From Thermoanaerobaculia bacterium (GTDB lineage: Bacteria > Acidobacteriota > Thermoanaerobaculia > UBA5066), in the NCBI GenBank assembly GCA_963719225.1, contig CAVRAY010000001.1, positions 96,001 to 160,000 on the forward strand: a DNA stretch of 64,000 nt. The letters run 5' to 3'. The notes under the pieces are model-generated. The model saw only the letters and a list, made by a program, of their open reading frames with translations. It did no database searches and was not told the DNA's origin. A program made the position numbers and the translations under genes. The first letter of the stretch is position 1; each line of letters starts with the position of its first letter. Below, one piece after another: positions 15,039 to 20,111 of the stretch.

Positions 15039-16340
15039 TCACGAACCCCGCTGCGCTCCACCTTTCACGAACGCCTTCTTGCCCGCGAACAGCGCCCGCT
15101 TCTCAAGCTCCTCCTCGATTCTCAGGAGTTGGTTGTACTTCGCGATCCGGTCGCTCCGGCAGCCGGAACCGGTCTTGAGGTGGCCCGCGCCGACCGCGAC
15201 CGTGAAGTCGGCGATCGTCGCGTCCTCGGTCTCGCCCGAGCGGTGGGAGACGAAGATGCCGTAACCGGCGGCGCGCGCGATGGCGATGGCCTCGAGCGTC
15301 TCGGTCAGCGTCCCGATCTGGTTGAGCTTGATGAGGACGGAGTTGGCGACCTTCTGCTCGATGCCCTTGGAGATGATGGCCGGGTTCGTGCAGAAGATGT
15401 CGTCGCCGACGAGCTCGATCTTCTTGCCGAGCCGCGTCGTGAGCCTCTTCCACCCCGGCCAGTCGTTCTCCGCCAGACCGTCCTCGAGAAGGACGATCGG
15501 GTACTTGCGAGCCCACTCCTCCCACAGCGCGATCATCTCGTCCGAGGTCTTCGCCTTTCCGCCCGACTTGCGGAAGTTGTACAGGCCCTTGTCGTACAGC
15601 TCGCTCGTGGCCGGATCGAGCGCGATCGAGATCTGGCGCCCCGGCTTGTACCCGGCCGCCTCGATCGCCTCGAGGATCACCTCGACCGCCTCCTCGTCGG
15701 AGCGGAGCTGCGGCGCGAAGCCTCCTTCGTCTCCCACGGCCGTGGCGTAGCCGCGCTTCTTCAGGACGCTCTTCAGGGCGTGGAAGGTCTCGATGCCCAT
15801 CCGGAGGCTGTCCGCGAACGTGCGCGCGCCGTGAGGGGTGATCATGAATTCTTGGAAGTCGACGTTGTTGTCGGCGTGACGGCCGCCGTTGATAACGTTC
15901 ATGCACGGCACCGGGAGAAGGCGCGCGTCCTTGCCGCCGAGGTAGCGGTAGAACGGCTCCTTCTTCGAGGCCGCCGCCGCCTTCGCCACGGCGAGCGAGA
16001 CGCCGAGGATGGCGTTCGCGCCGAGCTTCGCCTTGTTGGGCGTGCCGTCCAGCTCGATCATCCGGCGGTCGATCGCGGCCTGGTCGAGCGCGCTACGGCC
16101 GCGCATCTTCGGGGCGATGACGTCGTTCACGTTCGCGACGGCCTTCTGCACCCCCTTGCCGCCGTAGCGTCTCGACTTCACGTCGCGCAGCTCCACGGCT
16201 TCGCGCTCGCCGGTGGAGGCGCCGGAGGGGACAATGGCCCGGCCGAACGAGCCGTCGGCGAGGAAGGCCTCGACCTCGACGGTGGGGTTTCCGCGCGAGT
16301 CGATCACCTCGCGGGCGTGGATGCGGCGGATCACGGACAT
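15039..16340 (-). CDS. eno: Enolase, second (island) copy
   Basis: [37 protein letters not shown]. Confidence 0.95.
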
Positions 16341-16352
16341 GGGGTCTCTCCT

Positions 16353-17416
16353 TCAGTTCTTCGTGGCGCCCGGCCGCATCGCGAGAAGCGTCGTGGCACC
16401 GAGCGCCTGCAGGGCGCCGGCGGCGAAGAAGCCGACGGCGATGTGAGCGGGGAAGAGCGACCAGAGGCCGCCGACGAGTGCGCTGGAGACGAAATCGCCG
16501 ACACCGTTCGTCGCCGCCAGGACGCCCATCCCGGTCCCCTTCACGGGTGGCGCGGCGACGAGCGATGGGATGGAGACGAAGGCACCGGCCCGGATGAAAT
16601 AGAAGGGCGTCAGCAGCCCGAAGGTCAGGGTCCGCAGCCGCCGGATCAGGACGTGGTCCTTGCCGACTGTTCCCGCCAGCACCATGCCGATGACATAGGC
16701 CGGGAGCACGGCCTCGCTCCCTGCCCACGACGCGAGCGCGCCGAGCCCGAACAGGCAGAAGAGGAGGAACTTCGCCTCGAGCTCCGAGGCCGGCCGCCGT
16801 AGCTTGCGGAAGAAGCGCGGCGTGAGCCAGGGCAACACAAAGACGAGGCGAACGAGATCCCCGCAAAAACGAGGGTGCGGACGGTAAACGGCGCGAAAAT
16901 CAGCCCCAGCGCGAGCACGGTGCCAAGGTCGTTGATGAAGCAGGCCGCGAGCAGGGTCTTGCCGTAATTGGTGCGGTTGAGCCCGAACTCCAGCATCACC
17001 GCATAGACGACGGCGACCGAGGTCGTCGAGAGCGCGACGCCGGCCAGCCAACTCGGCGCTACGGCCCAGCCCAGCAGCCAGTGCGCGGCCGCGCAGCACC
17101 CAGAAACGGAGCGGTGAGAAGACCGGCAGAGGCCGAGGCGGCGGCCTCTTTCCACTTCGCGCGGAACACCTCCGGGATCGAGTTCGGCGCCGGCGAGAAA
17201 GGTGAGGACGATCGCGCCCGCGCCGGCAAGGAACATGACCCAGGCTGCCTGCGTCCCGAGCGACCGCGCCGCCGATCGCCGCGCCGATGGCAAGCTGGGC
17301 GACCGTCCCTACGACGATCTCCGACAGCGCCGCGGCGATGCGTAGCCAGATCGAAATCAGAGTGGCCAGAGCGCCAGGCCCAGCCAGAGCGCCGCGAGGG
17401 ACCAGACTTCGGTCAC
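16353..17416 (-). pseudogene. CPA2 cation:proton antiporter (frameshifted) fused to an MFS C-terminal fragment
   Basis: GTG 17416 MTEVWSLAALWLGL; LSTTSVAVVY, ACFINDLGTV, LTPFYF spread over several frames; last ~65 aa (GTGMGVLAATNGVGDFVSSALVGGLW) are MFS-like. Confidence 0.7.
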
Positions 17417-18140
17417 GGCTTCGGCGGCGCGGGTTCCGGCACCGTGTGCGCGACGTACTTCACGACGGTCACGTCCGAGATCGCGATGAGACATCCCTCG
17501 GTGACGACCGAGTCGAGCGCGGCGAGGAGGGCTTGATCTTCTCCTCCTCGTCGATGACGGTGATCATGATCGGGTCGTCGCTCGAGAGCGTGAGCGCGTG
17601 ATCCTTGTGGAGCCTCTTGTGCGCGCCGTAGCCGAGGATTCCCTTGTAGACGGTGGCGCCCGCGATGTCGAGCTGCCGCGCCCGTTTGACGATCGTCTGG
17701 TAGAGCGGCTCGCCCTCCCACTTGTCGTTCTCTCCGATGTGGATCCTCCGCATCTTCGCTTTCCCGACGAGCCGCACGAGGTCCTCCTTCTCGCTCGGCG
17801 CCGCGGCCTCCTGCCCGGTGCCGAGCTTCACAATGTGGGTGTCCTGGTCTCCACGAGCCCCTTCTCGACGATGTCGTAGACGTCCGCGAGCACACGGTCG
17901 ATCGCCTCGGGGGGTCGACGACGTCGATCCGGACGGGGGCGGCATCGCGCCGTCCATCTGGTCGACCCTCTGGATCGTGCCGCGTCCGGTGAAGCCCGCG
18001 AGTGCACGCGACACGGTCGCGCCCGCGAGCCTTCGGTGGCGGAAGAGGACGAGGAGCGCGTTGTAGACGCCCTGCCCTTGCCACCGGTCGGCCTCGTTCA
18101 CCGTGATGATCAGCTTCTTCGCGGGACCGGGGTGGAGCAT
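17413..18140 (-). CDS. Tandem DUF190 (PII-like) domain protein, frameshifted
   Basis: Two units: LAGATVSRALAGF and IAGATVYKGILGYG...LSSDDPIMITVID; split across frames. Confidence 0.78.
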
Positions 18141-19905: not shown

Positions 19906-19925
19906 CGGAGACCTCCTACCTTACT

Positions 19926-19974
19926 GGTAGGAGTCATCAGCCCCGGAGGGCAGTTCCGGCGGACTCCATCGCCC
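19926..19974 (-). ncRNA. Fluoride (crcB) riboswitch
   Basis: Minus strand GGCGATGGAGTCCGCC-GGAACTGCCCTCCGGG-GCTGATGACTCCTACC matches the consensus; TGCTAACCT extended -10 just upstream. Confidence 0.93.
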
Positions 19975-20111
19975 TACTGGGCTTAGGTTAGCACCGGGCG
20001 TGCGGGTTATTCCGCCGACTCCGTCGGGAGGCGAGCAGGATCAAAGCCCTTCCGAGGGGGACAAGGGAGATCAGACCTTAACGCCGACCTTAATTTCGCA
20101 ATTCTGACGAC

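Follow-up and report, generated by a model that had tools for sequence, protein, structure and literature searches.

A fluoride riboswitch apparently linked to a dynamin-like GTPase, found in a partly decayed operon of a Thermoanaerobaculia bacterium

What might a dynamin be doing behind a fluoride riboswitch? The question is raised by an operon on the reverse strand of a 64,000-nucleotide stretch of a Thermoanaerobaculia genome (assembly GCA_963719225.1, contig CAVRAY010000001.1; here called the window), which, unlike the known fluoride regulons, is led by a gene for a dynamin-like protein (DLP). A first-pass annotation had placed a consensus fluoride riboswitch at 19974–19926, about 20 nucleotides (nt) before this gene, and had named the Rfam fluoride model as the check. 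That placement is borne out: RF01734 matches 19921–19982 on the reverse strand with a score of 55.7 bits (gathering score 34; E 9.6e-13), the aptamer core spans 19973–19926, and 20 nt separate the end of the riboswitch from the start of an intact 580-residue DLP. Rfam finds just two RNAs in the whole window – this riboswitch and one tRNA – and the control genomes, E. coli and B. subtilis, have no RF01734 match. The pairing is a real and apparently undescribed extension of the fluoride regulon, present here in a partly decayed copy.

The riboswitch and its expression platform

The elements on which the argument rests all lie on the reverse strand:

19985–19993, reverse strand: predicted extended −10-like promoter element (TGnTAnnnT), ahead of the aptamer, from sequence
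19921–19982, reverse strand: fluoride riboswitch aptamer RF01734, from the Rfam match and paired helices
19913–19933, reverse strand: hairpin sequestering the Shine–Dalgarno (SD) region, from complementarity, folding and a shuffle test
18163–19905, reverse strand: gene for the DLP, 580 residues, intact, with a Dynamin_N domain and an IniA/BDLP fold

In the fluoride riboswitch class, fluoride bound with Mg2+ stabilises a pseudoknot, and from its membership of this class the window RNA is inferred to bind fluoride as well. In 21 copies of the riboswitch taken from related loci, 98.5% of the cells in helices P1 and P2 and the 5-bp pseudoknot are paired, and compensatory changes occur at five pairs spread over all three helices.

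The expression platform reuses part of this structure. The 3′ end of the riboswitch had been predicted to pair with the region of the ribosome-binding site (RBS), and it does so perfectly: CTCCTACC (19933–19926), the pseudoknot strand at the 3′ end of the aptamer, is the exact complement of GGTAGGAG (19920–19913), 5 nt further on, which contains the RBS, its GGAG lying 7 nt upstream of the TTG start codon (19905). The resulting hairpin (−16.2 kcal/mol) dominates the ligand-free ensemble of the window leader, where the eight SD-side nucleotides have pairing probabilities of 0.71–1.0. When at least six of the eight pseudoknot-strand nucleotides are required to pair with downstream sequence, the anti-SD hairpin is found in 21 of the 29 further loci whose switch immediately precedes the DLP, compared with a mean of 7.4 and a maximum of 13 in 100 shuffles of the tails; it is conserved beyond chance. 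A stricter test, which also demands a recognisable paired SD, retains 16 of 30 loci. As the 3′ strand of the pseudoknot shares nucleotides with the strand that covers the RBS, the aptamer fold and the RBS hairpin are mutually exclusive, and the conservation of such a hairpin makes a translational ON switch the likely mechanism: fluoride–Mg2+ binding would stabilise the pseudoknot and open the RBS, allowing the DLP to be translated. Ahead of the aptamer, TAnnnT stands at the same place in 27 of 30 aligned relatives' loci, a count without a chance control.

Linkage of riboswitch and dynamin across genomes

Both fluoride riboswitches of the 4.75-Mb source genome directly precede a DLP gene; these DLPs share 56% identity, and tblastn found neither a third DLP nor a riboswitch-free housekeeping copy in this genome. 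The second unit lies about 3.2 Mb from the window copy (G000:C1:3275686-3282140, equivalent to L011 7684-14140). All six loci found among GTDB relatives have the switch directly before the DLP – one of them belongs to a 99% identical sister strain (L005). For non-identical relatives the count is five of five.

A sample of 400 other genomes of the phylum extends this pattern. The DLP, scored as present at E≤1e-40, occurs in 36 of them, 34 of which have a riboswitch match; in 33 the match lies on the same strand and at most 5 kb upstream, either directly upstream (22 genomes, including G223, whose match is below the Rfam cut-off) or further off within 5 kb (11 genomes). The three unlinked genomes are G059, with no match, G053, with a match on another contig, and G114, at a contig edge. 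Among 100 genomes, chosen by serial number from the 364 without a DLP at this threshold, 27 have any RF01734 match (one of 20 close relatives, namely G024, and 26 of 80 others). In metagenomes, 35 of 80 DLP loci have at least 5 kb of upstream sequence, and in 24 of these a switch on the same strand lies upstream and passes the Rfam cut-off, in a recheck that covered 48 of the 80; our own covariance model, in which helix P2 was misaligned, is positive for 30 of the 35. At 80% identity, 14 of 17 metagenome locus clusters have an upstream switch. Four loci (L016, L043, L047 and L057) show three to five riboswitch matches within 5–14 kb around the DLP, some of them divergent.

Genomes of several megabases hold one to four switches, and chance adjacency of riboswitch and DLP should therefore be well under 1%. 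The first-pass annotation had proposed surveying dynamin homologues, with a lack of association in other genomes as the outcome that would speak against it; linkage in 33 of 36 genomes points the other way. In these comparisons, which concern this DLP family, riboswitch linkage of the clade is near-obligate, and regulation of the DLP by the fluoride riboswitch is strongly supported by sequence.

The same survey bears on the idea of a spare copy, in which fluoride would inhibit a needed GTPase and the cell would respond by making more of it. Fluoride-inhibited enzymes are typical riboswitch cargo (PMC5533749, PMC11139923), and the enolase of the window operon is itself a spare of this kind, sharing 57% identity with the genome's other enolase at about 36125–37384 of the window. 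The DLP, however, has no switch-free counterpart in this genome and occurs in 37 of 401 phylum genomes, counting the source, which leaves no housekeeping function in need of a spare; we consider the idea very unlikely.

In the literature searched, we found no published link between a fluoride riboswitch and a bacterial dynamin, although the gene-association list of Baker 2012, which lay outside the scope, may include such GTPases. By term search, the word 'dynamin' is absent from the main text of PMC2864571 and eight of its supplementary files, and from the main text of PMC5533749, PMC11139923 and PMC7266159.

The dynamin-like protein, its partners and its possible role

The DLP matches Dynamin_N (PF00350) at E 3.8e-27 and has the expected GTPase motifs: G1 (GQFKRGKS), G2 (T89), G3 (DTPG) and G4 (NKAD), with G62/K65/G67/K68/S69, T89, D156-G159 and K215/D217 invariant across 44 aligned homologues. 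Its AlphaFold model (pLDDT 84.9, pTM 0.66) comprises a G domain followed by a long helical neck and trunk, with long helices at 279–377, 384–435 and 484–579; no transmembrane helix is seen (maximum KD19 1.26). The trunk tip, residues ~436–490, is hydrophobic and basic: of the four stalk windows with the highest hydrophobicity, three fall within residues ~439–490, as does the most basic window, in a part of the model with low confidence; this composition is reminiscent of the basic lipid-interacting loop of mycobacterial IniA. The family is large (3082 matches from 7994 scored candidates; Thermoanaerobaculia, Polyangiaceae and Methylomirabilis are among the source labels), and dN/dS values of 0.10–0.26 in five close pairs indicate that it is under purifying selection.

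Among solved folds, IniA is the closest (Foldseek E 6e-20), followed by BDLP and the Campylobacter jejuni DLP pair; profile searches put the same three first (C. jejuni DLP E 1e-24, BDLP E 4e-24). With IniA (6j72/6j73; PMC6715688) the protein shares a GTPase domain, neck and trunk, the lack of a transmembrane helix, a putative basic/hydrophobic tip loop and stress induction, which is predicted here; it differs in its ~20% identity, its control by a riboswitch rather than by drug induction and the lack of an IniC-like partner at the window locus. Nostoc BDLP (2j68) and C. jejuni DLP1/DLP2 (5owv) are the best profile matches, and relatives of the window DLP often come with a second DLP (24 loci), yet the similarity lies mainly in the G domain, and this genome's own two copies are paralogues of one type that lie far apart. 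We know of no fluoride link for BDLP or the C. jejuni proteins. With B. subtilis DynA, E. coli CrfC and LeoABC/Eleos, only membership of the dynamin superfamily is shared: in a scan of other family members, the genome's paralogue among them, scores were 46–72 bits for DynA (NCBIfam cut-off 1600) and at most 23 for CrfC (cut-off 1146), and instead of a strong LeoA with LeoB/C in one operon there were weak, partial PADLOC hits and none for partner proteins.

What could such a protein do in fluoride stress? Fluoride crosses into the cell as hydrogen fluoride (HF), making the cytoplasm more acidic and reducing the proton-motive force (PMC11139923); antiporters and enolase are known, common riboswitch cargo (PMC11139923, PMC5533749). 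IniA binds anionic lipids through its LI loop and cuts membranes (PMC6715688), and bacterial DLPs have been linked to membrane repair (PMC6715688, PMC10104851). We suggest that the riboswitch-induced DLP protects the cell membrane during fluoride stress, a proposal that we regard as evenly balanced and whose protective element, including membrane remodelling as the function, is inferred. The DLP would bind anionic lipids via its hydrophobic/basic trunk tip and, using GTP, cut out or seal leaky membrane, which would limit HF entry and the loss of proton-motive force caused by fluoride; it would act together with the antiporter, USP, spare enolase, Fluc and, in three loci, a cyclopropane fatty-acid synthase. 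The gene for this synthase follows the DLP in L007, L011 and L101, preceded in the last of these by a switch of its own, and hints at a membrane-tightening branch; we found no published link between cyclopropane and fluoride in the literature searched.

Several observations weigh against this protective role. The three genomes and 11 of 35 metagenome loci without an Rfam-grade upstream riboswitch break the linkage, and related genomes are not independent samples, so the linkage counts carry no p-value. The lipid-binding tip is read from hydrophobicity and charge in the part of the model with the lowest confidence (pLDDT 62–79, ~431–480). Compared with that of L005, the window DLP has seven non-synonymous and no synonymous codon differences, all in variable stalk columns, a ratio that does not look like purifying selection, and the copy may be drifting; in the same comparison arsR and arsP go the opposite way (3:0, a synonymous excess), and dsbD has five non-synonymous and one synonymous. 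Finally, membrane repair offers no explanation for the most constant partners of the DLP, namely DUF190 and a STAND-like ATPase, each present in 15 of the 25 fully flanked loci, and tblastn did not find the ATPase in this genome.

These partners lead to a different view of the DLP, as an accessory of the export machinery that, together with DUF190 (P-II-like) and the STAND-like ATPase, would cluster, insert or turn over Fluc and antiporters in the membrane, with no repair of the bilayer. Neighbour genes were called by our own GC-frame heuristic, which may miss some; recurrent partners are DUF190 (43 loci), the AAA/STAND-like ATPase (40), CrcB (25), a second DLP (24), CPA2 (19), enolase (16) and USP (13), and a DUF190-CBS protein gives a weak P-II match. 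CrcB, however, is called in just 9 of the 25 loci flanked by at least 5 kb on both sides, and in close relatives it is divergent and does not lie behind the switch, standing immediately upstream in four of five; in L006, L008, L009, L010, L014 and L049 it is divergent just upstream, with the switch facing the DLP. As the ATPase, too, was not found in this genome, an accessory role is unlikely. A 260-residue stand-alone ATPase of the type found in some 40 loci (L064 11002-11787) has no NCBIfam or PADLOC assignment. Small families without a Pfam match also recur in these operons – L101 64-681 (15 loci), L065 3325-3843 (9), L077 2071-2559 (4), L056 5522-5947 (4) and L081 7536-7961 (3) – and several of these proteins look helical and adjoin the DLP.

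Metal fluorides trap GTPases in their transition states, and this chemistry suggests another reading: GDP–MgF3− or GDP–AlF4− would trap the G-domain dimer, so that fluoride would both induce the DLP and lock its membrane polymer, leading to vesicle shedding or a protective coat. The invariant GTPase motifs and the second DLP in 24 loci, reminiscent of hetero-oligomeric DLP pairs, are in keeping with it; it requires high cytoplasmic fluoride and free GDP, and we judge it improbable. A broader version, in which the whole clade is fluoride-specific – riboswitch-induced, with membrane polymers that are locked by fluoride-trapped GDP and seal or shed membrane, and with DUF190 and the STAND-like ATPase forming an export-independent defence against HF – is doubtful in our estimation, but if true would be the first ion-triggered dynamin system.

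Fluoride might also be a proxy signal, standing for acidic or metal-rich soil or for phage attack, with the DLP serving as a general envelope or anti-phage factor. Family members do hit LeoA/LeoBC of PADLOC (E 1e-7 to 1e-13), the window operon shares its surroundings with an arsenic-type cluster, and a connection between DynA and repair following phage infection has been described (PMC10104851). The Leo matches are weak and partial, however, the partner proteins have no PADLOC hits and the neighbours are classical fluoride-response genes, all of which leaves this reading very unlikely.

The window operon, its islet and their meaning

Downstream of the DLP, the operon continues as follows:

17413–18140, reverse strand: tandem DUF190 gene with about four frameshifts, from two DUF190 stretches and frame analysis
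16548–17416, reverse strand: CPA2-type cation/H+ antiporter gene with about seven frameshifts, stopping at about residue 295 of ~409, from two Na_H_Exchanger fragments
16353–16562, reverse strand: final ~60 codons of an MFS transporter, brought up against the antiporter by a deletion, from homology
15039–16340, reverse strand: second enolase, intact, with a complete domain

Gene content and order thus agree with the co-directional series of tandem DUF190, CPA2::MFS and enolase originally described, whereas the DUF190 and antiporter genes are frameshifted and CPA2::MFS is a deletion remnant; a fusion protein is rejected, both parts being fragments that meet at a deletion junction. The genes downstream of the DLP are most likely decaying, and we lean, on sequence grounds, towards real decay of DUF190 and the antiporter over a local assembly error. 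None of 15 other genes (16 kb) shows frame switches, the frame breaks are not at homopolymers, a deletion junction is present and 5 of 82 invariant antiporter positions are changed (intact homologues: median 0, maximum 7.9%); for DUF190 the homologues are too distant for this comparison to be informative. In the sister strain L005 the switch and DLP are the same, and a separate deletion has removed 2.85 kb, beginning early in DUF190 and ending late in enolase. On the side of an assembly error, no in-frame stop occurs along the aligned path of the frameshifted genes.

The operon was also said to have no Fluc/CLC exporter. This is correct for the operon itself, where no CrcB or CLC gene was found – an ordinary situation, given that 16 of 25 fully flanked metagenome loci have no crcB nearby – but not for the genome, whose crcB and antiporter lie about 2.2 kb from the second riboswitch on the opposite strand. 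That second unit, in which the DLP is followed by a small open reading frame and the cyclopropane fatty-acid synthase, and an antiporter-crcB-DUF190 group is divergent, is syntenic with L006, L008, L009 and L010; it is probably the native locus, and probably also the working fluoride locus of this genome. The genome's single CLC (C1:1042625-1043608) has GKEGP, has neither GNNLI nor GREG and is not linked to a riboswitch; the signature of CLC-F exporters is GNNLI/GREGT.

The window copy sits in an islet of 8.4 kb:

20165–20241, reverse strand: tRNA-Met(CAT), upstream border, from Rfam
11870–14849, reverse strand: intact arsR-arsP-thioredoxin-like-DsbD cluster, from domain search
11780–11831, reverse strand: 52-nt repeat (87%) of the tRNA-Met 3′ half, an att-like downstream border, from sequence comparison

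The partner segment of the repeat is at 20159–20210, and nothing obvious in the way of an integrase or a GC shift was seen in the islet. In L005, a repeat at 13209–13254 is 100% identical to tRNA-Met over 46 nt, and the DNA beyond it differs from the window. The borders suggest that the tRNA-Met 3′ end is an integration hot spot. Outside the islet, a PIN-domain gene with a small upstream partner (21479–22137, reverse strand) is likely a VapBC toxin–antitoxin pair; an amtB-glnK-porin-sigma54 activator cluster, assigned by translation, follows at 22552–27541 on the forward strand (the related L005 version is ~89% identical); and GC content falls to 55% at 5000–5999, compared with 62–70% elsewhere in 5–28 kb.

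Such a setting raises the question of hitch-hiking, in which the DLP would be a mere passenger that ended up downstream of a riboswitch within mobile stress islets. The tRNA-bordered islet, the broken neighbours and the excess of non-synonymous changes mean that this may hold for the window copy. For the family it is largely refuted by linkage that recurs over many families and gene orders, by the conserved anti-SD hairpin and by purifying selection, and as a general account it is extremely improbable.

Known fluoride regulons offer the natural frame for the operon. The aptamer class is the same (RF01734; Weinberg 2010, PMC2864571), and the Enterobacter cloacae FRM operon (PMC5533749), ppaC-uspA-eno-gpmA-crcB-orf5249, likewise resides on a genomic island; enolase, antiporter, USP, pyrophosphatase and CrcB are cargo shared between the known regulons and the window's relatives.

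With its broken downstream genes, the window copy is a poor choice for experiments; the paralogue beside crcB, or the intact loci L061, L065 and L099, would be better. Known fluoride defences comprise export, spare enzymes and pH balance, and a dynamin clade wired to the riboswitch would add membrane remodelling to them, with a possible bearing on fluoride-tolerant hosts for organofluorine degradation. To our knowledge, the physiological triggers of bacterial dynamins are mostly unknown; fluoride would be a cheap and specific inducer for them, making their role directly testable.

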